A stretch of DNA of 64,000 nucleotides from Simkaniaceae bacterium (lineage in GTDB: Bacteria > Chlamydiota > Chlamydiia > Chlamydiales > Simkaniaceae): the NCBI GenBank assembly GCA_050248615.1, contig JBFWSA010000005.1:1843-65842 (forward strand), written 5' to 3'. Below the pieces are notes generated by a model, which was given only the letters and a program-made list of their open reading frames with translations, had not been told where the DNA came from and did not search any database. The position numbers and the translations under genes were made by a program. Position 1 is the stretch's first letter. Every line of letters starts with the position of its first letter. Below, one piece after another: positions 19,018 to 62,886 of this stretch.

Positions 19018-19181
19018 TATACTCAAACCAATTTAAAAGTTGGATTTTCGGCTGCGCCAAAGCACCGTAATTTGCTGATCTTACATGACCTCATATTTCT
19101 AATATTATGTCATGTAAGAACGACGAATTCCGAAAGTTTTCGCGTTGCCCCAAAACCAACTTTTAAATTGGCTTGAGTATA
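19018..19181. mobile_element. foldback MITE-like element, family FB-A (164 bp), inverted relative to the other copies
   Basis: TATACTCAAACCAATTTAAAAGTTGG...CCAACTTTTAAATTGGCTTGAGTATA. The interior matches the reverse complement of copies 24193, 26200 and 41651. Confidence 0.85.
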
Positions 19182-19208
19182 TGTACATAAATATATGTAT
19201 ATTGGTAA

Positions 19209-19400
19209 CATGAAAACAAAGAACTTAAAAAGAAGCTTAAAAAATACGGGTGGAGATTGCAACGGCATGGTTCAAACCACGATATTTGGACAAACGGTCT
19301 AATTTCTGAACCAGTGCCTCGCCACAATGAAATCAATGAGCTTCTAGCAAAAAAAACCCTTCAAAAGGCTAAAATAAACCCAGCAGTGAATGAGGGTTAA
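19209..19400 (+). pseudogene. hicA: HicA-like mRNA interferase toxin, start codon out of frame
   Basis: The open frame reads ...ELKKKLKKYGWRLQRHGSNHDIWTNGLISEPVPRHNEINELLAKKTLQKAKI, the HicA/YcfA pattern. The only ATG (19210) is in the +1 frame and stops after 31 codons. A 1-nt indel in an A-run is implied. Confidence 0.6.
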
Positions 19401-19401
19401 T

Positions 19402-19839
19402 ATGGAATTAGATGGTATTATTGAAAAAGCTCCTAAAGGGAAATATTGGGTTATCGAAATTGCAGCTCTAGAACTTATGACTCAAGGAACAAGTAGAAAA
19501 AATGCTTTTTCTATGATTCAAGATGCCGTTCTCGAACTCATAGAATCTTATTTTGGCAAAACGGTTCGAAAAGCTTTAAAACTCTCTATCTATGAACATG
19601 GAAATGAAGGTTTTGGGTTAAGTAGCAATAATAATAAGATTCTTCTCTCTTTAGCCTTAAAAAGGCAAAGAGAGATTAGTGGATTAACAATTAGAGAAGC
19701 AGCTTTGAATTTAGGTTCTAAGTCTCCAAATTCCTACTCTCAATATGAAAAAGGAAAAATCAATATCTCTTTAGATAAATATGAACTGCTTCTTTCTGCC
19801 GCAAACCCTCAGACTACTTGTAGTCTTCGCCTAGGTTGA
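19402..19839 (+). CDS. hicB: HicB-like antitoxin with C-terminal HTH domain
   Basis: N-terminal HicB-like fold (YWVIEIAALELMTQGTSRKNAFSMIQDAV). C-terminal XRE-type HTH (LTIREAALNLGSKSPNSYSQYEKG). GAGGG lies 6 nt before the ATG at 19402, directly after the hicA stop. Confidence 0.7.
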   Translation: MELDGIIEKAPKGKYWVIEIAALELMTQGTSRKNAFSMIQDAVLELIESYFGKTVRKALKLSIYEHGNEGFGLSSNNNKILLSLALKRQREISGLTIREAALNLGSKSPNSYSQYEKGKINISLDKYELLLSAANPQTTCSLRLG

Positions 19840-19852
19840 TTCCAGACGGATC

Positions 19853-19887
19853 TATACTCAAACAACTTTTGAAGTTGGTTGAGTATA
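19853..19887. repeat. short (35 bp) palindromic form of FB-A
   Basis: TATACTCAAACAACTTTTGAAGTTGGTTGAGTATA is nested inside a second inverted repeat (TCCAGACGG...CCGTCTGGA). It lies 14 nt after the hicB stop. Confidence 0.7.
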
Positions 19888-19914
19888 ATGACCCGTCTGG
19901 AATCTATGGATCCA

Positions 19915-20534
19915 CTAAAAAGTAACTTGTGCGGCTAATGAAGTCCTGGCCGACTCCAGTTCACTCTCTACTGTGGATGAGTCATCGGGAGTCTGATCGG
20001 CATAGTTGACATTGTTGTAATACCCCATCCCAAATCCCAAGGATGTATAATAGTCGTTGCAAAAGCCAGACGATTCTCCATTCATGGTATGGATCGCATT
20101 TGTTAAGTCGGTATTGGCACTTAAGGCGGGATAACTCGCTAAAACACTGTTTAACGCGAATTCGAGAATAGGTCTCTATGAGAAGGTTTAGATTTTTGAA
20201 GAGATTTTCAGAAAAATCTGCGAAAGAGATAGCCAAAGCGCTATCTTCGAGCAGTTTTGCCTGGAAAGATCACAAAAAGATAGACGTTCTCATAGAGATC
20301 TAATCCCGAATTTGCGTTGTTTAGCCTATTGAGTGCCTCTCCGATCACCAGTCCGACATTATTGCTGATCCATTCTGTTTTTTCGTAGGAATGGCCATCT
20401 CCTGCATCGATTAAATGATCTCCTAGAGACTTCCGATTCGCCCAAGCTTGTTTAAAGGCGCTTTCCGCATCAGATAGTTGCCCTTCTGCTGCATAGTATT
20501 TCTGTAATACTGGTGGTGGTAGTGGTTGTGACAT
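19915..20534 (-). pseudogene. hypothetical ~149-aa gene split by an FB-B foldback element
   Basis: The N-terminal part MSQPLPPPVLQKYYAAEG...GEALNRLN runs into the element. An unlisted frame downstream reads SVLASYPALSANTDLTNAIHTMNGESSGF...AAQVTF*. Deleting 170 bp (164-bp element plus one copy of TGTTTA) restores one frame. GGGGGA RBS before the ATG at 20534. Confidence 0.7.
20154..20317. mobile_element. foldback MITE-like element, family FB-B copy A (164-bp core)
   Basis: ACGCGAATTCGAG...CGAATTTGCGT, flanked by the direct repeat TGTTTA (20148..20153 and 20318..20323). The central ~100 bp is near-identical to copy B at 62723..62886. Confidence 0.85.
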
Positions 20535-21049
20535 GTGAAATCCCCCATACGGTATGTTTCGTTCCAAAAAAAAATGCCAGCTGGATCAAAAGACCCAACT
20601 GACACCAAAAAAAGGGAAGGTACAAAGTTCTTTTCGTGCGCTTTGAGCGCGTACTGGTCGTGGTCGTAGCATCCGTTATTCTACCGTTGTCGCTTTAGTT
20701 TGAGTTGCTAACGATTGAGAACTAAATCTGTGTTGGGAAATAAAGGAAAGAACGTGATGTTGAAACCCCTTAAAACCCCATTAGTTCACAAACGTTAATA
20801 CTCAAAAAGAGCTTGTTTCTGGTAACTATTCGCTTTCTGTTATTAACTTGTGATAATCTCTCTTTCTAAATGTAATTATAACAAAATTTAATTTATTTTT
20901 AAAATATATTTATAAAATATTTTTTAAACAGCTTAAAACAAACAATTTAAGTCGATTTACTATTAAAATAAAATCTTAAGACTGCATTAAATAAATGATC
21001 TATCTTATTGTTAATGAATAGTTTAAAATAAGCCCTTAAACTTCAAGAA

Positions 21050-22204
21050 TTAAGAGCTCTTATAAATATAACGTGGGCGAACAATAGGAGTCCCTTTCCC
21101 CTCTCTGGCCTCACAACGCTCATAAACGATCTGAATGGCAATCCCTACAGAGCGAGCCAGGCCAAATAAAACCGTATAATAATCAGAATAGGGAAATCCT
21201 GCGGCTGAAAGGAGGGTTCCCGACATGGCATCGACATTGGGATAGGGGTTGGAGATCTTTGGGTTCTCTTTGAGAACCTTAGGCCCTTCAGTACGCAAAA
21301 GGAGGGCCACTTTGACAAGAGGATCATCAGGGAAATGCTCAGACGCATAGTCATAAAAGATCGTTGCCCGGGCATCTTCTGCGCGGAGAACAGCATGACC
21401 AAAACCATAAACCAGTTGATTCGACTGGAGACGCTTCCGAATCAAACTTTCGACTGCTGCAGCCGTAGGATTATCTCCCACTTCTTCTAAAACAGTATGC
21501 ACAAAAGTGAGGCAATCCTGATTGGCTTTTCCATGGCGCGGTCCGGCTAGTCCGCACATTGCCGCACAAATGGAGCCATACATCCCCTCGAGTCCAGAAG
21601 CAACAGCTTTCCCCACAAATGTCGACAGATTCCCCCCTCCATGATCGTAATGGAGGATATTAAATAAACGGAAAACTTCTGCCAACTTCTCTTTTTCAAT
21701 ATCTGGAGCTTGCAACATATAAGCAAAATTTTCCATGTATCCCATCCCTGCATTCGGAGCCGGAGTATCGCCCCATCCTGCGTGGTAATTGATCACAGCA
21801 GCGACTAAGTGTGGAAGTTTAGCAATGAGATTCAAGCAGTCTTCTTTATAGTCCCCTTGACCTTCAAGCATTCCTAAAATCAAAATTGCAGCGGTAAAAA
21901 GCTTCATCGGGTGCCCTTGTCTAGGAAGAGACTCGATGTGCTTAATCACAGCTTGAGAGCAGTGAGCCCGTTTCTTGAGTTCTTGACTGAAATGGGTAAT
22001 ATCTTGAGCACTCCCCTCTTTTCCGTAATAAAGGAGAAAAAGAACGCGTTCGGGTTCCCATAAATAGAGTTCAGAAATCGGCTTACCTCGATAAAACAGT
22101 CCCTTAATCGGGTCCACATAGGAGGTGGTGCAATATCCAACAGGATATCCACGCATTCCAGTTTCTAATTGGTCTTTAGTGACTTGAAATAGTATCTCTT
22201 CCAT
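21050..22204 (-). CDS. gltA: citrate synthase family protein
   Basis: 384 aa. HYDHGGGNLST and GFGHAVLRAEDARA correspond to the citrate synthase catalytic His regions. Confidence 0.85.
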   Translation of the reverse strand: MEEILFQVTKDQLETGMRGYPVGYCTTSYVDPIKGLFYRGKPISELYLWEPERVLFLLYYGKEGSAQDITHFSQELKKRAHCSQAVIKHIESLPRQGHPMKLFTAAILILGMLEGQGDYKEDCLNLIAKLPHLVAAVINYHAGWGDTPAPNAGMGYMENFAYMLQAPDIEKEKLAEVFRLFNILHYDHGGGNLSTFVGKAVASGLEGMYGSICAAMCGLAGPRHGKANQDCLTFVHTVLEEVGDNPTAAAVESLIRKRLQSNQLVYGFGHAVLRAEDARATIFYDYASEHFPDDPLVKVALLLRTEGPKVLKENPKISNPYPNVDAMSGTLLSAAGFPYSDYYTVLFGLARSVGIAIQIVYERCEAREGKGTPIVRPRYIYKSS

Positions 22205-22211
22205 ATGGACC

Positions 22212-23189
22212 TCATTTTAACAAGTGCTTAACAGCATCTCTTTCTTCTAAAAGCTCTTTTTCCGTTAGGGCAATTTTCTCTTTCATCAAAGGATCCCACT
22301 CAAAATCCTCTACAATTTCTACCTTTCCAGGATGCGTCATTTTACAAGGGAAAGAAAAGATCAGTCCCTCTTGAATACCATAAGGATTTCCATCGGAAGG
22401 AATGCAGGAAGAAAAAACTTTAGCGCTTTTATGATAGAGGGCTCCCACACCATCTAAAATCGCATTGGCTGCAGACCCCGCAGAAGATTTCCCTCGCGCA
22501 TTGATCACAGCAGCTCCCCTTTTCTGTACGGTTTCCACGAATTCTTTTTCGAGCCATTTGCGATCGGTAATCACATCTGTTACTTTTTTCCCCTGAATTT
22601 TTGCATTGAGAAAATCGGGAACTTGCGTTGCCGAATGATTTCCCCAAATCACAACATTGTCTACCACATCAACAGAAACGCCCGCTTTCTTTGCAAGTTG
22701 AAATTGAGCCCGATTTTGGTCGAGGCGGGTCATTGCATGAAACTGACTATTGGGAATATCTGGAGCATTATGCATCGCAATTAAGCAGTTTGTGTTGCAG
22801 GGATTCCCCACAACAAAAACAAGAACATCTTTGGCTGCAGCCTTGTTGAGAGCCTGTCCTTGTCCGACAAAAATTTTTCCATTGTCTGTCAGGAGATCTT
22901 TACGCTCCATCCCAGGTCCTCGGGGTTTGGCTCCTACAAGAATTGCCACATTTACATCGCCAAAAACCTCTTCGGGATCACTCCCCACTTTTACCTCTTT
23001 AAGGTGGGGAAACCCACAATCTTCCAATTCCATGACAACCCCTTTTAAGCTCTCAATAGCTTGGGGTACTTCAAGAATATGGAGAGCAATAGGCTCACTC
23101 TTACCAAAAAGTTCTCCGCTAGCAATACGGAAAAGGAGGCTATAAGCAATTTGTCCGCCCCCTCCTGTCACTGCGATCCTTCTGACCAT
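22212..23189 (-). CDS. mdh: malate dehydrogenase (LDH-like/cytosolic type)
   Basis: 325 aa. [17 protein letters not shown] fold, GNPCNTN and WGNHS motifs. Confidence 0.9.
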
Positions 23190-23295
23190 GTAAAAAAACT
23201 CCTCTAACTCAATAACCCTATTTAAATCTTTATATCGATATACTACAAGGGAAAATTGGTTTTTTTAAACCTCCTATTTTGGTAGGATCAGGAGT

Positions 23296-24150
23296 ATGAA
23301 AAAGCAAGATTTTATTCTGAACCTTTCTTGTCCTGATCGTGTGGGGATTGTTGCCGGTGTTACCAGTGCCTTGGCAGAGATGGGGCTCTTTCTTTTAGAG
23401 CTTTCTCAATATAGCGATCCTTCGACAGGACAATTTTTTATGCGCATCCATTTTGAAACAACAAAAGCAATCTCTGAAGAGGATATCATAAAAAATTTCG
23501 AAAAAGTCGCTACACCCTTTTCAATCACATGGGAACTCCATGACACCCTCTACCGTCCCCGTGTTCTCATCATGGTTTCGCAGCACAGTCACTGTTTTAA
23601 CGATCTTTTACACCGTTGGGCTTCTGGCACCCTCCCCATCGAAATCGTAGGGGTCGTTTCGAATCATGAGGATCTCAAGCATATGGCCACTTGGTATCAA
23701 GTTCCCTTCCACCATATGCCCATTACACCCCAGAATAAGGGAGAACAAGAGGCTAAACTACTCAAACTTATCGAAGAAGAAGCCATCGATCTCGTCATTT
23801 TAGCCCGTTATATGCAGATCCTTTCAGACAAAATATGCAATAGACTCCATGGAAAAGTGATCAATATCCACCACTCCTTTCTCCCTAGCTTTAAAGGAGC
23901 TAAGCCTTACCACCAAGCCTTTGAGCGGGGGGTGAAAATCATTGGGGCCACTGCCCACTACGTTACAGCCGATCTAGATGAAGGGCCTATCATCGATCAA
24001 GAGACTATCCGTGTTCGTCATGATCACACCCCCAAACAACTCGTTCAACTCGGTTGCGACGTTGAATGTCAAGTCCTTGCTAGAGCTGTCAAGTGGCACA
24101 TTGAGCAGCGCGTGATTATCAATCAACATAAAACTGTTGTCTTCAACTAA
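23296..24150 (+). CDS. purU: formyltetrahydrofolate deformylase
   Basis: 284 aa. N-terminal ACT domain (LSCPDRVGIVAGV) plus formyltransferase core (INIHHSFLPSFKGAKPYHQA, GATAHYVT). Confidence 0.9.
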   Translation: MKKQDFILNLSCPDRVGIVAGVTSALAEMGLFLLELSQYSDPSTGQFFMRIHFETTKAISEEDIIKNFEKVATPFSITWELHDTLYRPRVLIMVSQHSHCFNDLLHRWASGTLPIEIVGVVSNHEDLKHMATWYQVPFHHMPITPQNKGEQEAKLLKLIEEEAIDLVILARYMQILSDKICNRLHGKVINIHHSFLPSFKGAKPYHQAFERGVKIIGATAHYVTADLDEGPIIDQETIRVRHDHTPKQLVQLGCDVECQVLARAVKWHIEQRVIINQHKTVVFN

Positions 24151-24192
24151 CCTTCCTATTATGGATTAAATTATGAAAGCTTTCGCGTTGCC

Positions 24193-24356
24193 TATACTCA
24201 AACAACTTCAAAAGTTGGTTTTGGGCTAGCGCGAAAGCTTTCGGAATTCGTCGATCTTAAATGACCTAATATTAGAAATATGAGGTCATTTAAGATCGGC
24301 AAATTACGGTGCTTTGGCACAGCCGAAAATCCAACTTTTGAAGTTGTTTGAGTATA
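24193..24356. mobile_element. foldback MITE-like element, family FB-A (164 bp)
   Basis: TATACTCAAACAACTTCAAAAGTTGG...CCAACTTTTGAAGTTGTTTGAGTATA. Its arms pair over nearly the full length. It is flanked on both sides by fragments of an older FB-A copy. Confidence 0.9.
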
Positions 24357-24409
24357 AAACCAACTTTTGAAGTTTTTGAATCGTAAATCCTTTAACTCGA
24401 GATAGGTTC

Positions 24410-24895
24410 ATGGAAGGGAAAACACCTGCAGTCACTGCAATTCATGATCATACTTACCGGATCTTTCCCAATGACCTGAACGCGCAAGGGACGGTCTTTG
24501 GAGGGCTCATCATGGCAGAAGCCGATCGCTTAGCCCATATCGTGGCGGAAAGACATAGCAGCCGGATCTGCGTGACGGCTTCGGTCGACTCTATTGTCTT
24601 TCATGCCCCAGCAGGGCATGGAGATAATTTAATTTTCCAAACCTCCATCAACCGTTCTTGGCATAGCTCGATGGAAGTCGGGGTAAAAGTCACCGCTGAA
24701 GAACGCCTGACATTAGAGCGCAAGCATATTGCCTCAGCCTATCTCACCTTTGTTGCTTTAAATGATCATGGCAAGCCTGTCTCCGTACCACCTGTCCTTC
24801 CTGAATCTGAAGAGGAAAAGCGTCGCTTCAATGAAGCAGATTTGCGCAGAAAAAACCGGATTTCTCTTAAAAAACAAAAATTAGAACTTAGCTAG
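24410..24895 (+). CDS. acyl-CoA thioesterase (hotdog fold, YciA-like)
   Basis: 161 aa. PNDLNAQGTVFGGLIMAEADRLA motif. The stop TAG is formed with the first bases of the next element. Confidence 0.8.
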   Translation: MEGKTPAVTAIHDHTYRIFPNDLNAQGTVFGGLIMAEADRLAHIVAERHSSRICVTASVDSIVFHAPAGHGDNLIFQTSINRSWHSSMEVGVKVTAEERLTLERKHIASAYLTFVALNDHGKPVSVPPVLPESEEEKRRFNEADLRRKNRISLKKQKLELS

Positions 24896-25055
24896 ATAGT
24901 GTCGTCATGAGATGGACATTTAAGAAGTGGCTCCTATGAGGAAATTTCAAGGCGACCGATGGAGAAAGCCTAAATGGGGCTTTTGAAGCAGGTCAACGAT
25001 GAAATTTTCCATAGGAGCCACTTCTTAAATGTCCATCTCATGACGACACTATCTA
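24893..25055. mobile_element. foldback MITE-like element, family FB-C (163 bp including terminal TA)
   Basis: TAGATAGTGTCGTCATGAGATGGACATTTAAGAAGTGGCTCCTATG... has its perfect ~45-nt inverse at the other end. Single copy in this window. Confidence 0.65.
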
Positions 25056-25064
25056 AGACCCCTT

Positions 25065-25228
25065 GAACCTATCCAGTATTTAAGATATTTTTTTATTCCA
25101 CGCTTTTTGGCATCTTTTCCATTTTCATTTTGACCTCTTGTCTCATGGACAATGTGATCAAAATGAAAATGGAAAGTCTGTTCAAAAATCGAAGAAATCA
25201 AATAAATCCTTAAATACTGGATAGGTTC
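25065..25228. mobile_element. foldback MITE-like element, family FB-E (164 bp)
   Basis: GAACCTATCCAGTATTTAAG...CTTAAATACTGGATAGGTTC. An internal CCATTTTCATTTTGA block is also inverted. Single copy in this window. Confidence 0.65.
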
Positions 25229-26577
25229 TTGATAAAAGGCCAACTTTTAGAAAACAGCATCATATCAAAGTAAACCCCGTTATCCCAAAACTGGTGATTT
25301 GTTATGCTTGTTTTTAGCTGAGCCATGACGCTATTTCCATCATCTTCATGGTCTATATAACTCTCCATAATGGCTTGCCCTACTTGGATTAAATGGGCAA
25401 GAGTCTCTCCATGCAAGCTCGTAAAGCCAGCATTTTCTAACCCTTGCAAAGCGACAAGATAAGCACCTACCGTAGCAAATTGATTCCGATCTCCAAAAAT
25501 GCTCACTCCATTGTTACCAAACCAGCTTGGATTAGGATCATAATGGATGGTAATTGTCCCTGCATTAAAGGCAGCTTCCATAACAGCGTTTAATAAATCT
25601 CCTGCATCTTTATAAAAGGAAGACCCTTTGTGATCTGAATTAGAAAGGAAGTTTCCAAGATACAAGATCGATCGAACAAGGGAAGCATTGTTATCGGGAG
25701 TTCCTTGATTTGTAGCTAAATCCTGAGCAGCATTCAGTTCATGCGCAATATAGCTCAGGGTTGCTTTTTGAATTTTTTCCCCTTCAAGGGTTTTCCCCTT
25801 CTGATTGCAATAGTCAATAATGGTTTGAACTGCATCAAAATCAACATAATCGTAAAAAACCCCCATCGGATTGTTCCAAACGGTGTCATTAGCCCCCCAG
25901 TGATTGCCTGGAGTCCATTCTCCACTTGCGGTGATATCTCCATTCACAAGTCCTTCAATCCCCTTATCGATAAGAGGTGTTAAAAAATCTGCTAGCGTTT
26001 CAAAAACAGAAGCTCCTTGGATCAGAGCACCTAGTGCCATAATATCTGCGTCCAATGCAGACCCTTTATCAACAATGGAAACTTGACATCCCGATGTTAC
26101 ATTATAGGCCCAAGGAATAAGTCCATCATCAAGCCCTTGGTTAGCAAGAAAAGCATATCCATTTGCTAAACCCGTAAAAAGTTCTTGATTTAGCGAACTT
26201 ATACTCAAACAACTTCAAAAGTTGGTTTTGGGCTAGCGCGAAAGCTTTCGAAATTCGTCGATCTTAAACGACCTAATATTAGAAATATGAGGTCATTTAA
26301 GATCGGCAAATTACGGTGCTTTGGCGCAGCCGAAAATCCAACTTTTGAAGTTGTTTGAGTATACAGCATAACTGAGCATCATCCCCATCGCTTCAGACGT
26401 ACAGTTACTTTGACCATTTCCCCCAACCGGAAATATTCCGCTTGTCGTACTTTGACAAAGAGTCGTTTGATTCACAACGATTTCCTCAGCAAAAGGAAAG
26501 GGATGATAGTCATAAGAAAACAGAAGTGCTTGAGTACATAGAAAAAGATAAAAAGATAATTTTTTGTTTCGTAACAT
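25210..26577 (-). pseudogene. glycoside hydrolase family 8-like (endoglucanase/chitosanase type) gene interrupted by FB-A
   Basis: ORFs 26311..26577 (signal peptide ... TSEAMGMMLSYAV, cf. the GH8 SEGQGYGM Glu motif) and 25210..26208 (ALDADIMALGALI, cf. the GH8 Asp signature) share one frame. They are separated by the 164-bp element. The last 5 codons and the stop come from FB-E. Confidence 0.65.
26200..26363. mobile_element. foldback MITE-like element, family FB-A (164 bp) inside the GH8 gene
   Basis: Near-identical to 24193..24356 in the same orientation. TATA at both ends; net insertion 162 bp if TA is the duplicated target. Confidence 0.9.
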
Positions 26578-26698
26578 GAATAAAGCCTAAGTTTGAATCG
26601 AATACATGAGGAAAGCATTTGGATAAAAAGAATTGTTGTCAACACTATCAGAAGTTTTGGGGTTCTCAATAACCCTTCAATTTTCTATAATCCTAATC

Positions 26699-26962
26699 AT
26701 GTTAGAAATTGCCCAAATTAAAAATGCTATTTTAGAAATCGTGAGAGATGCGGATGTGAAAATTACCAATCCTCCGCGTGACGGATTGCACTTTGAAGCT
26801 ATCGTGATCTCTTCTCTATTTGAAGGAAAGAGTTTAGTCGAGCAACACCAACTGGTGATGAATGCTCTAAAAGACTTATTTAGTACCACCCTCCATGCTC
26901 TGAGTCTAAAAACCTATACCCCCAAGGAATGGAATCGTGAGAGACATTCAACAAGAAATTAA
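26699..26962 (+). CDS. bolA: BolA family protein
   Basis: HFEAIVISSLFEGKSLVEQHQLVMNAL and LHALSLKTYTPKEW motifs. The start is taken at MLEIAQIK; the ORF is open from 26633. Confidence 0.8.
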   Translation: MLEIAQIKNAILEIVRDADVKITNPPRDGLHFEAIVISSLFEGKSLVEQHQLVMNALKDLFSTTLHALSLKTYTPKEWNRERHSTRN

Positions 26963-27245: not shown

Positions 27246-27346
27246 CATGGGAAAGTCTATTGAAGGGTATGCCCCCATCGCCCCTCAACCTCAGCGCAAT
27301 GCCCTTAAACGAACCGATTGTTGTTCTTTGAGAATGATGCTTCAGT

Positions 27347-34014: not shown

Positions 34015-34049
34015 TATACTCAAACAACTTCAAAAGTTGTTTGAGTATA
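34015..34049. repeat. short (35 bp) perfect palindromic form of FB-A
   Basis: TATACTCAAACAACTTCAAAAGTTGTTTGAGTATA. It encodes the last 9 codons and the stop of the GH1 gene on the minus strand. Confidence 0.8.
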
Positions 34050-35540: not shown

Positions 35541-35556
35541 AAATCCCCCAAGAAAA

Positions 35557-35633
35557 TGGTGCGGTTACCAAGACTTGAACTTGGGACCTCGACATTATCA
35601 GTGTCGCGCTCTAACCAACTGAGCTATAACCGC
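35557..35633 (-). tRNA. tRNA-Ile (anticodon GAT), CCA encoded
   Basis: The reverse complement folds as a cloverleaf: acceptor GCGGTTA/TAACCGC, D stem GCTC/GAGC, anticodon stem CGACA/TGTCG with loop CTGATAA, T stem CCAAG/CTTGG, 3' ACCA. Confidence 0.95.
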
Positions 35634-35649
35634 TAAGCGTTGTGGAAAA

Positions 35650-35722
35650 TGGAGGCTAGGAGAGTCGAACTCCTGACCTTCTGAATGCAAATCAGACGCT
35701 CTACCAACTGAGCTAAGCCCCC
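35650..35722 (-). tRNA. tRNA-Ala (anticodon TGC), CCA not encoded
   Basis: Cloverleaf: acceptor GGGGGCT/AGCCTCC with the G3:U70 alanine identity pair, anticodon stem TCTGA/TCAGA with loop TTTGCAT, T stem AGGAG/CTCCT. Confidence 0.95.
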
Positions 35723-36006
35723 ACATTATTCACGTGGGATGGATCCCATTAAACCTAAAACGATACAAGAAAAGTTCTATTTCCTGCAAGAATGGATCCA
35801 TTTTGAAAAAAATTTTTCTTTTTTCTTCACAAAATCTCCCTAAATTGAGAGAATATTCCCATATTGAGGAGTTCTTTCATGGCACCTTCCACGCACTAGC
35901 TTAATTAGCTATTTCAAACCTTTATTGGTCACCACGCTCAATTTTCGAGCGCATGCTTTTTATTTATATATTTTTTTTTATTTTCTTTGTTGTATTAGGT
36001 GCATTT

Positions 36007-41650: not shown

Positions 41651-41814
41651 TATACTCAAACAACTTCAAAAGCTGGTTTTGGGCAAGCGCGAAAGCTTTC
41701 GGAATTTGTTGATCTTAAGTGACCTAATATTAGAAATATGAGGTCAATTAAGATCGGTAAATTACGGTGTTTTGGCGCAGTCGAAAATCCAACTTTTGAA
41801 GTTGTTTGGGTATA
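41651..41814. mobile_element. foldback MITE-like element, family FB-A (164 bp)
   Basis: TATACTCAAACAACTTCAAAAGCTGG...CCAACTTTTGAAGTTGTTTGGGTATA, in the same orientation as 24193 and 26200. It lies between the divergent typA and trkH genes. Confidence 0.9.
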
Positions 41815-49513: not shown

Positions 49514-50557
49514 ATGAAAGCTCGACATTTTTTACCCCTGTGCGCATCTATCTTTGCAACTGCGTTTGCACAAGATTCTCCTCCTTCTTATCAAGAAAAT
49601 TGCTCGATTACTCCTCTTGCTCAACCCAATAAATCAAATAGAGTCGTCGATTTTTTCTTCGATGCCGCTTTTATCTATTGGACAGCAAGGCAAGATGGCC
49701 TTGCTTACGCCATTGAAGGGGCTGATTTTAATTTAGTAAACTTTGACACTCAAAGGGGGCCTATTCATGAACCCGATTGGGCCTTTGAACCAGGCTTTAA
49801 GGTCGGAGCAGGATTAAAAATGGAGCATGATGGGTGGGATGTCTATGCAAACTACACCTGGCTTCATAGCTCAGCAAGTGATTCCCTAACAGATCCCGGA
49901 AATTTCCTTCCAACACTCCAAAACGGTGCTTTTATCCTTTTCAACATCATCCCTAATCCTCCAGCAGGAGGAGGTTTTCAATCTGCAAGTGAAACCTGGA
50001 AACACCACTTTAATGTGATTGATTTAGAACTGGGGCGTGACTATTACATTAGCCAGTATCTCACCCTGCGTCCCCATTTTGGTTTCAAAGGGACCTGGCA
50101 AGAACAAGATGTCCGTGTACGGTATTCTTTTGTCGATACCAATCAGTTTAGAGCCCATCAACATCAAGATTCCTGGGGAATTGGAATTCGTACAGGTCTA
50201 AACGCCTGTTGGTTTTTTATCCCTTCCTTTGGCCTCTATGGAGATTTTGCCATCAGTGGTCTCTGGAGTGGATTTAACAATTCCCGAAAAGACGACCGGA
50301 TTTTTCCTGATCAATCGACGCTAAACATCTTAGATACCCATGAGGTGACCCACTCTGTAAAACCCGTGATTGAGTTTGGTTTAGGATTACGCTACCAACT
50401 CCTCTACAATGACGATGACTACCGTTTTCTGATCCAGGCGGGTTGGGAAGAGCAAATTTGGATGGATAACAATCATTTAATCGATTTCGCGCAATATGGA
50501 GAAAAGGGGACGCTCTCCCTCCAAGGATTCACTTTGAAGGTGCGGTTTGACTTCTAA
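49514..50557 (+). CDS. outer-membrane beta-barrel porin, MOMP-like paralog
   Basis: 347 aa. Signal peptide ending AFA-Q, alternating aromatic strands, C-terminal LKVRFDF. Highly similar to the next gene. Confidence 0.65.
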   Translation: MKARHFLPLCASIFATAFAQDSPPSYQENCSITPLAQPNKSNRVVDFFFDAAFIYWTARQDGLAYAIEGADFNLVNFDTQRGPIHEPDWAFEPGFKVGAGLKMEHDGWDVYANYTWLHSSASDSLTDPGNFLPTLQNGAFILFNIIPNPPAGGGFQSASETWKHHFNVIDLELGRDYYISQYLTLRPHFGFKGTWQEQDVRVRYSFVDTNQFRAHQHQDSWGIGIRTGLNACWFFIPSFGLYGDFAISGLWSGFNNSRKDDRIFPDQSTLNILDTHEVTHSVKPVIEFGLGLRYQLLYNDDDYRFLIQAGWEEQIWMDNNHLIDFAQYGEKGTLSLQGFTLKVRFDF

Positions 50558-50581
50558 CAATAAAACAATATCGGAGGCTTT

Positions 50582-51667
50582 ATGAAAGCACACAAACTCC
50601 TCTCACTTGCTGTGGGAATGGCTGCATGCTGCAGTACCACACTCGTTCAAGCTGACGGGCAAAGTCAGCGCGGGATGTATAATCCGCCCCCTTCACAAGG
50701 AGCAGAGCCCCTTCCCATTACCCCAAACGCTGGACCCAAGACCGTTTGGGCAGCAGATCCTTTCTTTACAGTAGACTTTATCTACTGGACACCTAGACAA
50801 GAGGGTCTAGCCTACGCCATTGAAGGGATCGACTTTGGTGCTGTACCAATAGATACTAATAAAGGCCCTATTCATGAGCCTGACTTTGGTTTTGATCCCG
50901 GCTTTAAGGTAGGAGCAGGTGTCACCATGCAACACGATGGATGGGATGTCTATGCAAACTACACCTGGATCCATAGCACCGCAACAGACAGTGTGACCGA
51001 TGTCAATGGTTTCCTCCCCACACTACCAAACTTTCTGTTCATTTTCTTTAACCTTACCAACCCTCAGCCTCCCATTACAGGAGATCTGTTTAAAGGAAAA
51101 ACATCTTGGACGCTCCACTATAATACCATCGATCTCGAGCTAGGAAGAAACTACTACATCAGCCGCTTCCTAACCTTGCGTCCCCATATCGGACTTAAAG
51201 GGACCTGGCAAGATCAAGATCTCCGTACTAGCTACCACATCACAGATGGCAATGTGATCTCCATTCATAACCATCAGGATTATTATGGAGTGGGTGTACG
51301 AGCCGGGTTAAATACCTGCTGGTATTTTATTAAATCGTTTGGCCTTTATGGAGATTTTGCCCTTACCGGAATGTGGAGTGGTTCGACGAATTTTAGGAAT
51401 GACAAACGTCATGCTCCTGATGATACCGTTCAAGCCTTTTTAGAAACGCACCAAGTGAGCCACTCTGTGAAGCCTGTCTTTGAGTTTGGTATTGGCCTCC
51501 GCTATGAATACCTCTACAACGATGATGACTTCCGCTTCCTCATTCAAGCTGGATGGGAAGAGCAAATCTGGGTGGGAAATAACCAGTTTATCGACATTGC
51601 GGAATATGGAGATAAAGGGAATCTCACTCTCCAAGGTCTTACTCTAAAAGTCCGTTTTGACTTTTAA
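50582..51667 (+). CDS. outer-membrane beta-barrel porin, MOMP-like paralog
   Basis: 361 aa. Signal peptide ending VQA-D. Long identical blocks with 49514..50557 (GPIHEPD, GFKVGAG, HDGWDVYANYTW, FLIQAGWEEQIW, LKVRFDF). Confidence 0.65.
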   Translation: MKAHKLLSLAVGMAACCSTTLVQADGQSQRGMYNPPPSQGAEPLPITPNAGPKTVWAADPFFTVDFIYWTPRQEGLAYAIEGIDFGAVPIDTNKGPIHEPDFGFDPGFKVGAGVTMQHDGWDVYANYTWIHSTATDSVTDVNGFLPTLPNFLFIFFNLTNPQPPITGDLFKGKTSWTLHYNTIDLELGRNYYISRFLTLRPHIGLKGTWQDQDLRTSYHITDGNVISIHNHQDYYGVGVRAGLNTCWYFIKSFGLYGDFALTGMWSGSTNFRNDKRHAPDDTVQAFLETHQVSHSVKPVFEFGIGLRYEYLYNDDDFRFLIQAGWEEQIWVGNNQFIDIAEYGDKGNLTLQGLTLKVRFDF

Positions 51668-51726: not shown

Positions 51727-51802
51727 ATTTTTTTTATTAATAATAAAAAAAACAGAAAATGTTATAATTGTATTACTGAACCATAAAATACTGGAGGGTA
51801 CT

Positions 51803-52132: not shown

Positions 52133-52138
52133 CGCACA

Positions 52139-54849: not shown

Positions 54850-54906
54850 AATTTATACATAACACCTCTTTGAAAAAAAAAAGAACTCTAGCTATCTAAT
54901 AAAGTT

Positions 54907-57575: not shown

Positions 57576-57642
57576 AAAAAATATTGATTAATAATCCCTA
57601 AATCTTACAGACTTGCAGCCTTTCAAAAAATAAGGACCACTT

Positions 57643-58524
57643 ATGGCTGTAGCAATTGCTTATCCTGTAAAAATTAATGATGTACCAGAGTTCCCCCCTC
57701 CCTCAAAAAAAATGGATCCTCTGCCAAAAATAGAGGAACGTCTTCCGCAAGCAACAACGATTAAATGGGGAGACAAGATTTACATCCTGCATGACCAATC
57801 GGTTTCCTATTTACATAATGGTCAAGCCGCACAGCTCCTCATGCGAAAAACAAGAATGGCCGCTCCGACGACAATGGAACTTTCTCTAAATGGCTTTGTA
57901 TTGGGATTGCCGAATGGAAAAGTAGAGGTTTGGGATATCCATGGGAGTCGCACTTCCCTACATGCTTTTGAGGCTGAAGCCTCTCAGGTTAATTCTATTG
58001 ATACGCTGGGGCACTCGATTTTGTGTGGAACCAATCAGCTTTCTTTAGTCGATACCCGTCAAGCTGACGCTCCTTGGACGATTTGGGACCATCATAGGTC
58101 TCCAGTCCAATCTGTTTCTTTTGTTTCCGAGACAATTTTTACCTCAGGGAGTGAAGACACACTGAAATTGTGGGATAGTAGAACACGTAGACCTCTTGTA
58201 ACCATCGAGAGAAATATCACAGCCCTCGATTGGTTTGGACCCCGCATGATTTCTGCAGGGAGTGATAACGTTGTCCGCCTTTGGGAACTTACATCCACCT
58301 CTTTTGCGGAAAGAGAAACCTATGAACTCCCTTGCTCTACAGTCTATCTTACGCGCACTTGTGCGGTTGCCTTAAGTACAAATCATGTCTATATCCGTTC
58401 GGGTGAGGAAGTGAAACTGCAAAAATTGCAAAATCCCTATCCCCCTTCTGCCTTAAGTCCTAATCGCGACTACTTAGTGACACAAGATGCCTCTGGCTAC
58501 ATAACCTTTTTTAAGCTTGCTTGA
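57643..58524 (+). CDS. WD40-repeat protein
   Basis: 293 aa. Repeat ends such as TSGSEDTLKLWD, SAGSDNVVRLWE and GKVEVWD. Confidence 0.7.
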   Translation: MAVAIAYPVKINDVPEFPPPSKKMDPLPKIEERLPQATTIKWGDKIYILHDQSVSYLHNGQAAQLLMRKTRMAAPTTMELSLNGFVLGLPNGKVEVWDIHGSRTSLHAFEAEASQVNSIDTLGHSILCGTNQLSLVDTRQADAPWTIWDHHRSPVQSVSFVSETIFTSGSEDTLKLWDSRTRRPLVTIERNITALDWFGPRMISAGSDNVVRLWELTSTSFAERETYELPCSTVYLTRTCAVALSTNHVYIRSGEEVKLQKLQNPYPPSALSPNRDYLVTQDASGYITFFKLA

Positions 58525-58550
58525 GAATTATCCTCCCGCTATGAAAATAA

Positions 58551-59462
58551 TTGATGCTGCGAAAGTACTTGTTGCCCACTTTTGCTTTCATGGGGCTACT
58601 CCTAGCCCTTTTTATGGTTTTTTACGGAGCGAGAAAACCACCCACTCCCCCCATCCTTTTTCCCCCTCCTGTTCCTCCCTATAAACATTACGTTGCTGGA
58701 GCAGGGATTGTTGAAGCCGCTTCTGAAGATATCAGCATTGGAACCCCTTTCAATGAACTCGCAACAGATGTCTATGCAAAAGTAGGGGATCAAGTGACCA
58801 AAGGAACCCCTCTTTTTAAACTTGATACGCGTACCCTTGTTGCCGAATACGAAGAGGCCCAGCAAAAACGGGATGTTGCTTACACAAATTTCCAAGATCA
58901 AGCTACGCAGCTTTCTCTCTATCAAAACCTCAAAGATAAGCGCGCGGTGAGTGAAAATGCCTTTAATCAGCGCTACTATGCTGCAGAACTCGCACAAAAA
59001 GAGCTAAAAGAAGCGGAAGCGGCGCTAGAGGTGATCGCCTCAAAAATTGAACGCTCGACCATCCGTGCCCCCTTAGATGGGGAAATCTTGCAAGTCAATG
59101 TGCGTGTTGGTCAGTCGGTAGATGTCAACCCTTTCGATAACAAACCCCATATGCTTTTTGGGGTAACAAATCCTCTTCATATCCGTGTTGAAGTAGATGA
59201 AGCCGACTCCTGGCGCGTGCAAAAAGGGGCCCCTGCTGTTGCCTATGTTCGAGGGAATAGTTCGATCAAGGTAGACTTAAATTTTCTCTATATCGAACCC
59301 TATATCATTCCTAAAACAGCTCTCACAGGGGATAATCAAGAACGTGTAGATACACGGGTCCTTCAAGTGATTTATGAATTTGACCGAGAAAATCTCCCGA
59401 TTTATACAGGACAACTCATGGACGTATATATTAAAGGGCTTCCCTCCAATGAAAAGTTTTAA
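58551..59462 (+). CDS. HlyD/MacA-type periplasmic adaptor of a tripartite efflux system
   Basis: 303 aa. N-terminal anchor helix, lipoyl-like motif (GDQVTKGTPLFKLD), coiled-coil hairpin, then IRAPLDGEILQVNVRVGQ. Confidence 0.8.
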   Translation: MMLRKYLLPTFAFMGLLLALFMVFYGARKPPTPPILFPPPVPPYKHYVAGAGIVEAASEDISIGTPFNELATDVYAKVGDQVTKGTPLFKLDTRTLVAEYEEAQQKRDVAYTNFQDQATQLSLYQNLKDKRAVSENAFNQRYYAAELAQKELKEAEAALEVIASKIERSTIRAPLDGEILQVNVRVGQSVDVNPFDNKPHMLFGVTNPLHIRVEVDEADSWRVQKGAPAVAYVRGNSSIKVDLNFLYIEPYIIPKTALTGDNQERVDTRVLQVIYEFDRENLPIYTGQLMDVYIKGLPSNEKF

Positions 59463-60837
59463 ATGGATTCCCTTACTCTTCCTCACAGGATGTGCTGTCG
59501 GCCCTGATTATCAAACGCCCCAAGTGACCCTCCCCTCCCATTATGATACTACAGAAGATACAGGAGAACTAGATGCAGGAGAGCTGCAGCATTGGTGGAC
59601 TGCTTTTAATGATCCTCTACTCGATGTCCTCATCCATGAAGCTCTTTCGCAAAACTTCGATCTTCGTATCGCTGTTGAAAAAATCCATGAAGTGCGCGCC
59701 CTTTACCAAATCCAAGCGGCTGAGCTTTGGCCCAAAGTCGATCTGAATGGTGAAGTGACACGTGAAAGAGTGAGCCAAAGCCTTTTTGACTCCCCCTTTC
59801 TAGGGCCTCCTGTCCAAAGTCTCTATCGCGTCGGTTTTGATGCGAGTTGGGAGGTTGATATTTTTGGAAAACGGCGCCGCGAAAAAGAGGCCGCTTACTA
59901 TGAATATGAAGCCGAAGTTGAAAATGCGCGGGGTGTTTATATCACTCTTCTCAGCGAAGTTGCTGCAAACTATATCGAGATTCGGGCCTTTCAACAAAAA
60001 ATTTCCCTATCTGAGCGGGATATCTACATTCGTAAAGAGCTTCTGACACTCTCAGAGTCTCTTTTTCGTGCAGGACTCTCCAGCGAAATTGACGTGGAGC
60101 TTTTGCGCATTGGCTTAGAAGAAGCCCGCGCAGCTCTTCCGACACTCCAAACGGGTTACCGTCAAACGCTCAACCGCTTAGCCGTATTACTCGGAAAACC
60201 CCCAGAAAGTCTCCATGAAGAATTCACGGAGCGTCGCCCTATTCCTAGCAACCCTAACGCCATTCCCGTCGGTCTCCCCTCTGATCTTCTCAGAAGGCGT
60301 CCCGATATCCGACAAGCTGAGCGCACCCTTGCTGCTGCAACGGCAAATTTAGGTTCGGCAATAGCTGATCTTTTTCCCCGTTTTTCCCTCCTCGGGGCTT
60401 TTGGCTTTGATGGAGACCATGTGAACAATTGGATCCAAGCGCAAAGCCGCACCTGGACCTTAGGACCCACAATGCAATGGCCCATCCTCTATTTTGGACG
60501 TATCCGCTCTAATATTCGCGCTCAAAATTCTGTCCAAAAGCAAGCCCTATTAAGCTATGAGCAAACCCTTTTAACCTCCCTAGAAGATGTAGAAAACGCC
60601 CTGATTGCTTACTACAAAGAAGAGGAGCGAAAAAAGTATTTTGAAAAGCAAGTCGAGGCAGCAAAACGTCAGTATGCACTCAGCCGTGACCTTTACCTTT
60701 CAGGACTCTCCGATTTTTCAACATTTTTAGAAGCTGATCAAACCCTTGTAGAAGCAGAAACAAATCTCGTTAATAGTGAAGAAGGGTTTAGCACAAAATG
60801 CGTCGCCCTTTACAAAGCGTTAGGAGGAGAATGGTAA
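59449..60837 (+). CDS. outer-membrane efflux lipoprotein (NodT/TolC family)
   Basis: Lipobox LLFLTGC then AVGPDYQTP, the typical NodT N-terminus. Two TolC-like repeats and a C-terminal LYKALGGEW. The start is taken at MKSFKW. Confidence 0.85.
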   Translation: MKSFKWIPLLFLTGCAVGPDYQTPQVTLPSHYDTTEDTGELDAGELQHWWTAFNDPLLDVLIHEALSQNFDLRIAVEKIHEVRALYQIQAAELWPKVDLNGEVTRERVSQSLFDSPFLGPPVQSLYRVGFDASWEVDIFGKRRREKEAAYYEYEAEVENARGVYITLLSEVAANYIEIRAFQQKISLSERDIYIRKELLTLSESLFRAGLSSEIDVELLRIGLEEARAALPTLQTGYRQTLNRLAVLLGKPPESLHEEFTERRPIPSNPNAIPVGLPSDLLRRRPDIRQAERTLAAATANLGSAIADLFPRFSLLGAFGFDGDHVNNWIQAQSRTWTLGPTMQWPILYFGRIRSNIRAQNSVQKQALLSYEQTLLTSLEDVENALIAYYKEEERKKYFEKQVEAAKRQYALSRDLYLSGLSDFSTFLEADQTLVEAETNLVNSEEGFSTKCVALYKALGGEW

Positions 60838-60838
60838 C

Positions 60839-61999
60839 ATGCTTTTCTTATCGTTAAAGATTTTGATCGGAGATAAAGCCAAATTTATTGGGATCATCTT
60901 AGGCCTTAGCTTTTCGGCTTTGATCATCACCCAACAAGCGGCCATCTTTGTAGGGCTCATGACCCGCACCTTTGGATTTATCACTGACACGTCTCAGCCT
61001 AACATTTGGGTGATGGATGAAAAAGTGCGTTACATCGATGACATGAAACCGCTCAGAGACACGCAGCTTTATCAAGTGAGAGGGATAGAAGGGGTCGAGT
61101 GGGCCGTTCCTTTTTATAAAGGTCTTCTGAAGGCGCGCCTGCGCAATGGAAATTTCCAAATGTGTAATGTGATTGGCATTGATGATGCGACACTCATTGG
61201 AGGTCCCCCTCGGATGCTTGAGGGAGAATTGACCGACCTTAGACTCACTGATGCCATCATTGTGAATAAGGAAGGGGCCAATGACAAACTCGCTATCGAT
61301 GCAGGAAGAAATGGAAGGAATCTCATTCCCCTCCAAGTGGGAGAAACCCTTGAAGTCAACGACCACCGCGCAAAAGTGGTGGGTATTTGTGAAACAACCC
61401 GCACCTTCCAGTCTCAGCCCGTGATCTATACGACCTATTCACGTGCCACGACCTTTGCCCCTTTCGAGCGGAAGCTGCTCTCCTATGTTTTGGTAAAATC
61501 TAAACCAGGAGTCGACCCTCAAGTTCTCTGTCAAAGGATCGGTCAGTACACGGGACTCAAAGCCTATACCAGCCCAGCATTCAAAAAATTAACCGTTGAA
61601 TACTATATGTGGCAAACCGGAATCCTCTTAAATTTCGGGGTGGCAGTCTTTTTAGGGTTTGTCATTGGGGTCGCCATTTCAGGCCAAACCTTCTATAACT
61701 TTATTCTGGATAATTTGCGCTTCCTCGCCACCTTTAAAGCCATGGGAGCGAATAACCGCCTCCTGACAAAAATGGTGCTTCTCCAAGCCGCTTGGGTGGG
61801 ATTTATCGGATGGGGATTAGGCATTGGAATCGCTGCCCTTTTCGGTATTCTTTCGCGCAATAGCCCCTTATCCTTCTTGCTCCCTTGGGAACTTTATGCG
61901 CTGAGTTGCGTGGTGATGTTTTTGATTACCGGTCTTGCAGCCTGGATTGGGCTCTACCGGGTGTATCGGGTCGACCCTGCCATCGTGTTTAAGAGTTAA
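60839..61999 (+). CDS. ABC transporter permease (DevC/MacB FtsX-like)
   Basis: 386 aa. N-terminal TM helix, large periplasmic domain, three C-terminal TM helices (FtsX domain). Confidence 0.8.
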   Translation: MLFLSLKILIGDKAKFIGIILGLSFSALIITQQAAIFVGLMTRTFGFITDTSQPNIWVMDEKVRYIDDMKPLRDTQLYQVRGIEGVEWAVPFYKGLLKARLRNGNFQMCNVIGIDDATLIGGPPRMLEGELTDLRLTDAIIVNKEGANDKLAIDAGRNGRNLIPLQVGETLEVNDHRAKVVGICETTRTFQSQPVIYTTYSRATTFAPFERKLLSYVLVKSKPGVDPQVLCQRIGQYTGLKAYTSPAFKKLTVEYYMWQTGILLNFGVAVFLGFVIGVAISGQTFYNFILDNLRFLATFKAMGANNRLLTKMVLLQAAWVGFIGWGLGIGIAALFGILSRNSPLSFLLPWELYALSCVVMFLITGLAAWIGLYRVYRVDPAIVFKS

Positions 62000-62002
62000 T
62001 CT

Positions 62003-62701
62003 ATGGATAATGTCGCCGTAAAATGTGAAAAAATTCATAAATCCTTCGGAGAAGGAGCCCTCCGTTTTGAAGTCCTCCATGGGGTCAACCTAGAGGTAAA
62101 ACGGGGAGAGCTGCTCATGTTAGTGGGCCCTTCAGGTTCGGGGAAAACGACATTGATCTCTATTATCGCGGGCATTCTTGGCTACGACGCAGGAGAGTGC
62201 ACGATTTTTGGCCACAATCTCAATACCCTATCCGACGCAGAAAAAACCATCTTTCGGGGAAAAAATCTGGGGTATGTTTTCCAAGCATTCAATCTTATTC
62301 CCATGCTTTCCAATGCCGAAAACGTTTCTATTCCTCTTCTCTTAAATGGAGTCGAGCGCCTAGAAGCTCTCAGGCAAGCCAAAGAGCGCTTAGAACAATT
62401 TGGTTTGGGGGATAAAACCAACACCTATCCTAACGAGTTATCAGGAGGGCAGCAACAGAGAGTTGCCATCGCACGCGCTGTGATTCATAACCCTGATCTC
62501 ATCGTCTGTGACGAACCTACCAGCGCTTTAGACCACGAAAATGGAACCCTTGTGCTCAAACATTTGCGTGAAATTGTCACTAAAGAAAACCGCGCCCTGA
62601 TCGTCGTCACCCATGACTCCCGCATTTTTGAATTTGCCGACCGTATCGTTCACATGGAAGATGGGGTCATCACAGAAACCAAAGAAAATCACAACCACTA
62701 A
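62003..62701 (+). CDS. ABC transporter ATP-binding protein (DevA/MacB/LolD type)
   Basis: 232 aa. Walker A GPSGSGKTT, signature LSGGQQQR, Walker B LIVCDEPTSALD. Confidence 0.95.
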   Translation: MDNVAVKCEKIHKSFGEGALRFEVLHGVNLEVKRGELLMLVGPSGSGKTTLISIIAGILGYDAGECTIFGHNLNTLSDAEKTIFRGKNLGYVFQAFNLIPMLSNAENVSIPLLLNGVERLEALRQAKERLEQFGLGDKTNTYPNELSGGQQQRVAIARAVIHNPDLIVCDEPTSALDHENGTLVLKHLREIVTKENRALIVVTHDSRIFEFADRIVHMEDGVITETKENHNH

Positions 62702-62722
62702 CGCACAATGCGGGTTATTTTA

Positions 62723-62886
62723 ACGCGTATTCTGACTTAAATCTTTATCAAAAGGATTAGATTTTTGATGAGATTTTCAGAAAAATCTGCGAAGGAGATA
62801 GCCAAAGCGCTATCTTCGAGCAGTTTTTCCTGAAAAGATCGCAAAAAGATAGCCCTTTTCATAAAGATTTAAGCCAGAATACGCGT
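62723..62886. mobile_element. foldback MITE-like element, family FB-B copy B (164-bp core, TA on both flanks)
   Basis: ACGCGTATTCTGACTTAAATCTTTATCAAAAGG...CCTTTTCATAAAGATTTAAGCCAGAATACGCGT. The central block GATTTTTGATGAGATTTTCAGAAAAATCTGCGAAGGAGATAGCCAAAGCGCTATCTTCGAGCAG matches copy A. Confidence 0.85.

Follow-up and report, generated by a model that had tools for sequence, protein, structure and literature searches.

Mirrored arm changes in short hairpin elements of a chlamydial contig

The 64,000-nt stretch analysed here (the window; positions 1,843 to 65,842 of contig JBFWSA010000005.1, listed under a Simkaniaceae bacterium) carries repeated hairpin elements, and two of their families, FB-A and FB-B, raise the question of how the two arms of one copy come to carry the same substitutions. 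The original prediction, made from the letters of the window, held that the hairpin is kept while its sequence drifts, either because the stem is under selection or because one arm is copied from the other. In this study, the window copies are compared with copies from other contigs, including those of sister strains that were recovered from metagenomes (about 99.5% identity to the window). Loci with L numbers (L002, L019 and so on) are contigs from metagenomes or metagenome-assembled genomes (MAGs), and the prefix w marks copies in the window. The maintenance of the hairpin under drift was borne out in that the covariation of the arms is statistically real in both FB-A and FB-B. We hold with moderate confidence that the two families are non-autonomous hairpin MITEs (miniature transposable elements with inverted repeats) of the Correia/ERIC type, and that their arm covariation would result from template switching together with a filter at transposition.

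Covariation of the hairpin arms

According to an inverted-repeat scan, the window contains nine long hairpin elements of 163–169 nt each (Table 1). They belong to five sequence-unrelated families (FB-A to FB-E), all of which fall in this size range, and TA ends are present in at least four of the five. All of the window elements fold as near full-length hairpins, as DNA or as RNA. The size common to the five families suggests that their mobilisation is subject to the same length constraint.

Table 1. Hairpin elements and their derivatives in the window
Feature	Position	Strand	Description
Candidate decayed distant FB-B relative	925..1089	-	165 nt; AACGT...ACGTT ends
FB-E	9776..9944	+	169-nt hairpin; own family
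FB-A copy	19018..19181	-	164 nt with its terminal TAs; both arms with a variant terminal repeat
Collapsed FB-A, 35 nt	19853..19887		Outer terminal repeat folded on internal mini-palindrome TATACTCAAACAACTTTTGAAGTTGGTTGAGTATA
FB-B copy A	20153..20318	+	166 nt; imperfect full-length hairpin AACGC...GCGTT; flanks TA/TG
Old half-FB-A remnant, left piece	24167..24192		Split by insertion of copy 24193
FB-A copy	24193..24356	+	Young, 1 difference from consensus; not in strains L002, L003, L015
Old half-FB-A remnant, right piece	24357..24385		Other side of copy 24193
FB-C	24893..25055	+	163 nt; TA ends; perfect 46-nt arms; own family
FB-D	25065..25228	+	164-nt hairpin; own family
FB-A copy	26200..26363	+	Young; not in L002/L003; clean TA target duplication; gene split
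Collapsed FB-A, 35 nt	34015..34049		Found by terminal-repeat search
FB-A copy	41651..41814	+	Decayed: 63/72 pairs Watson–Crick
FB-B copy B	62722..62887	+	166 nt; TA on both flanks; identical across all strains recovered

FB-A is bounded at both ends by a 26-nt terminal inverted repeat, which has 10 matches in the window (0 expected). Each of the four full window copies measures 164 nt, with the TA of either end counted. Copy 19018, which is inverted relative to the three other FB-A copies of the window, is the oldest and most diverged one (16 differences from the family consensus), and it was found in every strain covering the site. The two arms of this copy have TATACTCAAACCAATTTAAAAGTTGG and TATACTCAAGCCAATTTAAAAGTTGG as terminal repeat, whereas the other copies have TATACTCAAACAACTTCAAAAGTTGG. 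As originally predicted, the three terminal changes (A12>C, C14>A and C17>T) are present on both arms, and the internal change TTAAATGACC>TTACATGACC is mirrored as GTCATGTAAG (alignment columns 68/98).

Further copies were collected by a database pattern scan with the terminal repeat, in which any base was permitted at the variable repeat positions. In genome collections, which did not include the window's own species, seven matches were obtained, all in MAGs of Chlamydiae or Verrucomicrobia, and 48 metagenome contigs matched. An alignment of 17 non-orthologous FB-A copies was used for the covariation analysis, and 72 palindromic pairs were counted. In this alignment 97.5% of the cells are paired. 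Seven pairs (10 cells) are changed on both sides, compared with 2.0 ± 1.2 in 500 shuffles (0/500), and controls with a slid register gave 0–1 such pairs. The number of Watson–Crick pairs is 1157, against 1109.9 ± 4.7 when the substitutions of each copy are re-placed randomly (0/5000). L058, L050, L019, L041 and L030 strongly preserve the structure, w24193, L024, L033 and L036 look random, and 19018 is intermediate (P = 0.017). No correlation was found between divergence and hairpin stability (rho 0.26, not significant), because some diverged copies preserve the structure and others have decayed.

Both FB-B copies of the window are exactly 166 nt long, with ends AACGC.. and ..GCGTT and arms of 46 nt. 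Over these arms, copies A and B differ at 12 positions on the left and 9 on the right; 7 of these positions coincide and 6 are exact mirrors, where about 2.3 coincidences and less than one mirror are expected by chance. The matching of variants within each copy was thus confirmed, and the near-identical centre that had been noticed with it was also found (5 differences in the central 74 nt against 21/92 in the arms; Fisher p = 0.005). A third full copy is present in a sister strain (L002:20780-20945). With these three copies, 14 pairs are changed on both sides, compared with 6.0 ± 2.0 in shuffles (0/500) and 0–2 in the slid controls. Mirrored changes were also detected when FB-E and FB-C were compared with related copies in other contigs; the FB-E-related copy lies in L018, and the changes between FB-C and L035 are clustered at 42-44 and 67-68. 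These results indicate that the arms of a copy change together far beyond chance in both FB-A and FB-B.

No clean empty site was found for FB-B, and the window counterpart of the L002 copy is a different sequence of about 100 nt, so the boundaries of that copy are unconfirmed. This window sequence (~11300-11420) contains the direct repeat ccctgattttcgacc twice, and the region is replaced relative to L002 rather than simply filled or emptied.

In FB-A, a hypervariable three-base site is located about 12 bp from the hairpin tip, at columns 68-70 / 96-98 (24260-24262 and 24288-24290 in copy 24193). Written as CTTAA[NNN]GACC / GGTC[NNN]TTAAG, it shows at least six distinct paired states: AAATG/CATTT in the consensus, AAGAG/CTCTT in L019, AAAAG/CTTTT in L030 and L039, ACATG/CATGT in 19018, AAGTG/CACTT in L058 and AAGCG/CGCTT in L045. 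One-armed intermediates are present in L024, L018, w26200 and w41651. Several mirrored states are common to paralogs: 70/96 to L019, L030 and L039; 69/97 to L019 and L058, with G-C at 69/97 by eye in L045 also; and 33/131 to L019 and orthologues of 41651, a copy whose strains are polymorphic at column 33 (G.T or A-T with T131). These common states were therefore inherited from amplifying masters.

The types of change in FB-A were tallied by hand from the per-copy difference list. According to this tally, roughly 35–40 private changes are one-armed and mostly transitions, and about 10 events are mirrored, about half of them transversions. Mismatches that the family had from its ancestor (columns 57, 76, 107 and 109) are repaired by about 8 of the one-arm changes. 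Arm differences in many copies are thus not simply random and uncompensated, as pairs change together beyond the shuffles, but most private changes are indeed uncompensated.

The 26-nt repeat of FB-A holds a mini-palindrome of its own, CAACTT-CAA-AAGTTG (-4.5 kcal/mol). The 19018 variant (C12, A14, T17; 19028-19043) retains a register-shifted mini-hairpin (-4.3 kcal/mol), and the A12/A14/T17 allele of some strains loses it (-1.6). The C12 allele of 19018 may be compensatory at the level of this local mini-hairpin as well.

Mobility and MITE character of the elements

Three presence/absence differences of FB-A were found among strains that are at least 99.4% identical, and copies 24193 and 26200 are not present in sister strains of about 99.5% identity. 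At site 26200, L002 has the empty allele agcgaact-TA-cagcata, and in the window a TA stands at either side of the insert. The target duplication here is clean, and the insertion splits a 401-aa open reading frame (ORF) into pieces of 88 and 332 aa. At site 24193, the empty allele has AA where TA is expected, and the old half-FB-A remnant is uninterrupted in L002 and L015. L015 carries an extra FB-A at window position ~25564 (L015:1920-1930), with one substituted base beside the junction; both of these sites otherwise fit a TA target. At two of the three polymorphic sites, the filled allele and the empty one thus differ in a base at or next to TA (AA versus TA at 24192/24357; gcaT versus gcaC at ~25564). 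These junction differences exceed the expectation from a strain divergence of about 0.5%, and could be a footprint of insertion or repair, or chance.

FB-A is dispersed: the 64 kb hold four copies that are full, two that are collapsed and a single remnant, and about 20 further full copies lie in metagenome contigs. The 35-nt collapsed form of 19853 was seen at six other distinct metagenome or MAG loci, including L008, L016 (the same as L055), L017, L021 and L023; the collapsed forms in L002 and L043 are orthologues of the window copy. The six-frame translation of FB-B has no open stretch longer than about 46 aa, and a six-frame peptide query built from FB-B, by which further copies were sought through spurious ORFs, gave no matches. 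The elements are short, non-coding and dispersed MITEs with terminal inverted repeats. They duplicate TA, and the duplication is clean at FB-A site 26200. TA target duplication is a trait of IS630/Tc1-mariner MITEs; among the fetched loci, no IS630-family element with these terminal repeats was seen.

The same 26-nt repeat bounds unrelated interiors (L007, L009, L011/L057 and L059), also in other MAGs of Chlamydiae and Verrucomicrobia. One repeat around unrelated interiors is the behaviour of a transposase-defined MITE superfamily. Pairs of terminal repeats 0.4–3 kb apart were found in none of the loci examined, and solo FB-A ends run on into unrelated sequence. Mini FB-A elements of 70–73 nt (L052:67-139 and L014:868-938) have two arms of the same type (A/A). 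Thus, they are not simple internal deletions of the full-length T/A element, and may have arisen by fold-back copying of one arm.

Origin of the mirrored changes and decay of resident copies

On the basis of these results, we infer the following course of events. Non-coding elements of about 165 nt would insert at TA, and a transposase that was not seen in this study would presumably mobilise them in trans. A change in one arm would sometimes be copied to the other arm by intramolecular template switching within the quasi-palindrome, and a single switch could carry several neighbouring bases together. Only copies with matching ends and stem would then continue transposing, so that the differences fixed between element lineages are mirrored. 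After fixation in place, ordinary one-arm mutations would accumulate and the hairpin would decay.

Several copies bear the pattern expected of arm-to-arm copying. The central 21 nt of L048 are the exact reverse complement of the FB-A consensus, and L050 and L041 have partial central flips that make the apical stem perfect. In L050 and L058, the adjacent changes 107A and 109G make the right arm exactly complementary to the left one, and the numbers of Watson–Crick pairs (72 in L050 and 71 in L058) exceed that of the consensus (70). Mirrored changes are often clustered, as at 12/14/17, at 69-70 and between FB-C and L035. The strain contigs covering the 19018 locus add alleles that arose in situ. 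At position 12, one arm carries either A or the C that matches its partner arm, and position 37 is G or A, where A restores the pair with the family-wide A37 allele of the other arm; a pair-restoring strain allele is also present at position 38 of FB-D. Positions 12 and 37 are 25 nt apart, and all four haplotypes exist, indicating recurrent change or very short recombination tracts. Over all elements, 2–4 pair-restoring alleles are found among 11–13 in-situ polymorphisms against about 4% expected (the expectation for random mutations, 3–5%, is our own estimate), where the numbers are small and the polarity is partly ambiguous. These features are suggestive of arm-to-arm template switching as the source of the mirrored changes.

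The same features could be explained by the mutational process alone, that is, by concerted evolution through template switching or gene conversion with no selection on the hairpin. Such a process would produce the loop flips, the multi-base symmetrising patches, the copies more perfect than the consensus, the pair-restoring strain polymorphisms and the apparent recurrence at the 19018 locus, and the fast yet paired divergence of the FB-B arms is easier to understand if compensation is 'free'. However, the five mismatches and the bulges are retained by almost all FB-A copies. The fate of fixed copies also speaks against it. The three FB-A copies nearest the consensus, including 24193 and 26200, have intact hairpins of -60 to -67 kcal/mol, whereas the old copies 19018 and 41651, for which no empty site was found in any strain recovered, have lost 7/70 Watson–Crick pairs and about 20 kcal/mol, leaving 63/72 pairs (about -41 kcal/mol in 19018, against -60 in young copies). 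Correction is thus slower than decay, and nothing maintains the resident copies efficiently in place. A purely mutational process also leaves the hairpin form and size common to five unrelated families unexplained. We therefore consider it unlikely as the whole explanation. This common form and size argue that shape matters for propagation, in favour of the proposed transposition filter. The mirrored states inherited by several paralogs and the prevalence of one-armed private changes also favour the filter.

The original prediction also named a structured RNA or a DNA cruciform as what selection might act on. In that case the elements would serve the host, as RNase III substrates, stabilisers or terminators, or as cruciforms, each locus being under purifying selection. 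In favour of this, covariation in FB-A and FB-B is significant, some elements lie between convergent genes or just upstream of genes, and the Correia elements bind RNase III and IHF, with effects on the genes next to them (PMC2649163). On the other hand, no Rfam family was matched by the hairpins: at gathering thresholds only two tRNAs match in the window, and in E-value mode the hairpins gave only sub-threshold matches to generic miRNA precursors. No sign of tolerance of wobble pairs at the RNA level was found, as one-arm FB-A transitions divide evenly in the hand tally between those forming G.T and those forming A.C mismatches (about 13 each), without strand-specific tolerance. One copy disrupts a gene, others are not in sister strains, the contexts are heterogeneous, and the old fixed copies decay. 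For mobile, TA-duplicating and polymorphic elements, any selection is most plausibly on continued transposition and not on a host RNA. Both of the predicted causes, stem selection and copying between arms, thus find evidence, but the former not in its host-RNA form, and a host-level function is in our judgement quite improbable.

A founder effect was considered as well. Each variant would then be a subfamily of its own, with a master that arose as a perfect palindrome when one end was copied by fold-back, and its arms would not be maintained afterwards. This would account for the mirrored states common to paralogs, for a fourth, partial FB-B copy (L049) whose right arm resembles that of copy A at 27/34 positions, and for the same-type arms of some 70-nt mini FB-A elements. 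In FB-A, however, all copies including 19018 keep the ancestral arm asymmetries of the family (five 1x1 mismatches and bulges), which indicates that the mirrored changes arose inside one lineage that was already asymmetric, and the independent birth of a perfect palindrome for each variant is rejected for this family. The any-base pattern gave 7 genome stretches and 48 metagenome contigs, none of which contained a paralog of the 19018 terminal variant, and pair-restoring alleles arise in situ among strains. The pure founder effect is thus very improbable. Amplification from palindromic masters, foreseen as an alternative to ongoing selection, does contribute, since several mirrored states are common to paralogs, but a symmetrising process is still needed because all FB-A copies have the same ancestral asymmetries.

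Template switching followed by a transposition filter, which we prefer, has its own difficulties. No transposase Pfam domain was found among the genes called over about 72 kb of the contig, and no full-length insertion sequence with these ends was found in the contig or in any fetched locus. The four-haplotype pattern at 19018 could reflect recombination between strains, and L065 is a mosaic. The in-situ polymorphisms at paired positions are thin over all elements: a pair is broken in about 7 cases and probably repaired in 2, and a further 2 are ambiguous. Nearly all FB-A copies still carry the five ancestral 1x1 mismatches and several bulges, so that copying between the arms must be infrequent or confined to short patches. 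FB-B comprises only three full copies, and its arms diverge 3–5 times faster than the centre, so that the proposed model needs an added sequence constraint on the centre.

Related systems, further families and neighbouring features

The host is, as judged from sequence similarity, a Simkaniaceae relative near Simkania. This assignment rests on porin homologues, which show 61–62% identity. Paralogs of the MOMP/Lpg1974-family porin are found in tandem and dispersed, at 49514-51667 and some 600 nt upstream of where the window begins (L087:18448-19512), and are 59–67% identical to Simkaniaceae proteins. In a MOMP-family porin paralog locus of another organism, the one locus tried, no FB elements were found. 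The window sequence is identical to a MAG contig in GCA_050187435.1.

Compared by architecture, the Correia elements (CREE) of Neisseria appear to be the closest analogue of FB-A. CREE have 26-bp terminal inverted repeats with TA target duplication and occasional CA ends, fall into size classes of 153–157, 104–108 and 69–73 bp, and carry alternative end-sequence variants, symmetric or not, whose symmetry is of consequence; insertion polymorphism between close strains and gene disruption are reported, and no transposase is known (PMC2649163). FB-A is similar in its size classes (164, 70–73 and 35 nt), 26-nt repeats, TA duplication with occasional CA ends, end variants, strain polymorphism, gene disruption and the lack of a transposase in the ~72 kb, but it forms a near full-length hairpin and not just terminal repeats around a core, and its host belongs to the Chlamydiota (Simkaniaceae) and not to Neisseria. 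FB-A is treated as an analogue and not as a member because its host is a Simkaniaceae relative. The Correia terminal repeat is not known to be related in sequence to that of FB-A.

For REPINs, compensatory changes across the hairpin are reported (PMC3116915), which is the same phenomenon as the arm covariation described here. REPINs, however, do not duplicate their target, and they are linked to a gene for a RAYT (Y1) transposase. Membership in this group is rejected for the present elements, which duplicate TA and have no Pfam match to a Y1/RAYT-type transposase among the genes called in ~72 kb. In bcr1 of the Bacillus cereus group, compensatory base-pair changes maintain the structure and stability is lost in some copies, and in ERIC-type elements either end carries a TA motif (PMC3184786). 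The bcr1 and ERIC/YPAL elements are likewise hairpin MITEs of about 125–170 bp. Their sequences and hosts are unrelated to those described here, bcr1 makes 5-bp direct repeats, and transcription is documented for those elements. As to the proposed source of the mirrored changes, quasi-palindrome template-switch mutagenesis in E. coli and yeast brings imperfect inverted repeats closer to perfection, and several bases are often changed together (PMC7202029, PMC3820800). The symmetrising patches, loop flips and pair-restoring alleles of the FB elements fit this process, which is known from reporter genes and mutation spectra and is suggested here by natural repeat variation.

Covariation of hairpin arms has thus already been reported for other bacterial hairpin repeats. 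What is new is the presence of several undescribed hairpin MITE families in Chlamydiae; literature searches gave no earlier description of MITEs or families of palindromic repeats, either in Simkaniaceae or in other Chlamydiae. The elements are active enough to differ between strains of about 99.5% identity, and one of them knocked out a gene. Young copies that are polymorphic, old ones that are fixed and numerous orthologues at the strain level can be compared, and form a small natural data set in which two usually confounded causes of stem covariation, selection on structure and arm-to-arm template switching, can be separated. The results also call for caution in covariation-based RNA discovery, because mobile quasi-palindromes can yield significant 'compensatory' signals without being functional RNAs.

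In FB-B and FB-C, the arms diverge much faster than the centre, yet they stay self-complementary. The idea that FB-B is an inner TA-flanked element inside a short outer hairpin was not supported: no empty outer hairpins or stand-alone centres were found, and all FB-B copies are exactly 166 nt long. L032 and the hairpin at 925-1089 have in common with FB-B only the length, the AAC(G/C)...(C/G)GTT ends and the apical motif GAAGGrAAtrGCC...GCtaTTtC (in 925-1089, GCGAAGGGAATAGCC...GCTATTTCC). The FB-B covariance model scores 925-1089, whose hairpin is weak (z = -3.8), at 39 bits. It also scores FB-C and FB-D at 57–73 bits, indicating that part of the signal is generic to 165-nt hairpins. L032 and 925-1089 are tentatively regarded as distant relatives of FB-B; if they are, the ends, the tip and the shape would be what is conserved.

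The length, end motif and apical hairpin are conserved in FB-B and FB-C, and perhaps also in 925-1089 and L032, and the 30–40-nt stems between them are almost wholly rewritten, still self-complementary. One could speculate that the TA-flanked hairpins of about 165 nt form a class that propagates by hairpin shape and short motifs at the base and tip, and not by long sequence-specific terminal repeats. We regard such a class as rather doubtful. If real, it would imply a mobilisation machinery that reads structure, and template switching that reshapes stems in natural populations.

Two of the single-copy families adjoin genes. The first TAG of FB-C (24893-24895) is the stop codon of ORF 24410-24895, which encodes a 4HBT thioesterase, and FB-D and the 3' end of the convergent ORF 25210-26208 overlap by 19 nt. 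Elsewhere in the window, tRNA-Ile(GAT) and tRNA-Ala(TGC) form an adjacent pair that stands by itself at 35557-35723 (minus strand), between a MatE-family gene and a glycosyl-hydrolase gene. These two tRNAs are the usual pair of the rRNA spacer, and rRNA has no match anywhere in the window. A 258-aa protein with a metallo-beta-lactamase fold, encoded at 16367-17143 (minus strand), matches Pfam PF23023 (Anti-Pycsar Apyc1), a phage counter-defence family, and lies here in the context of a chlamydial chromosome.

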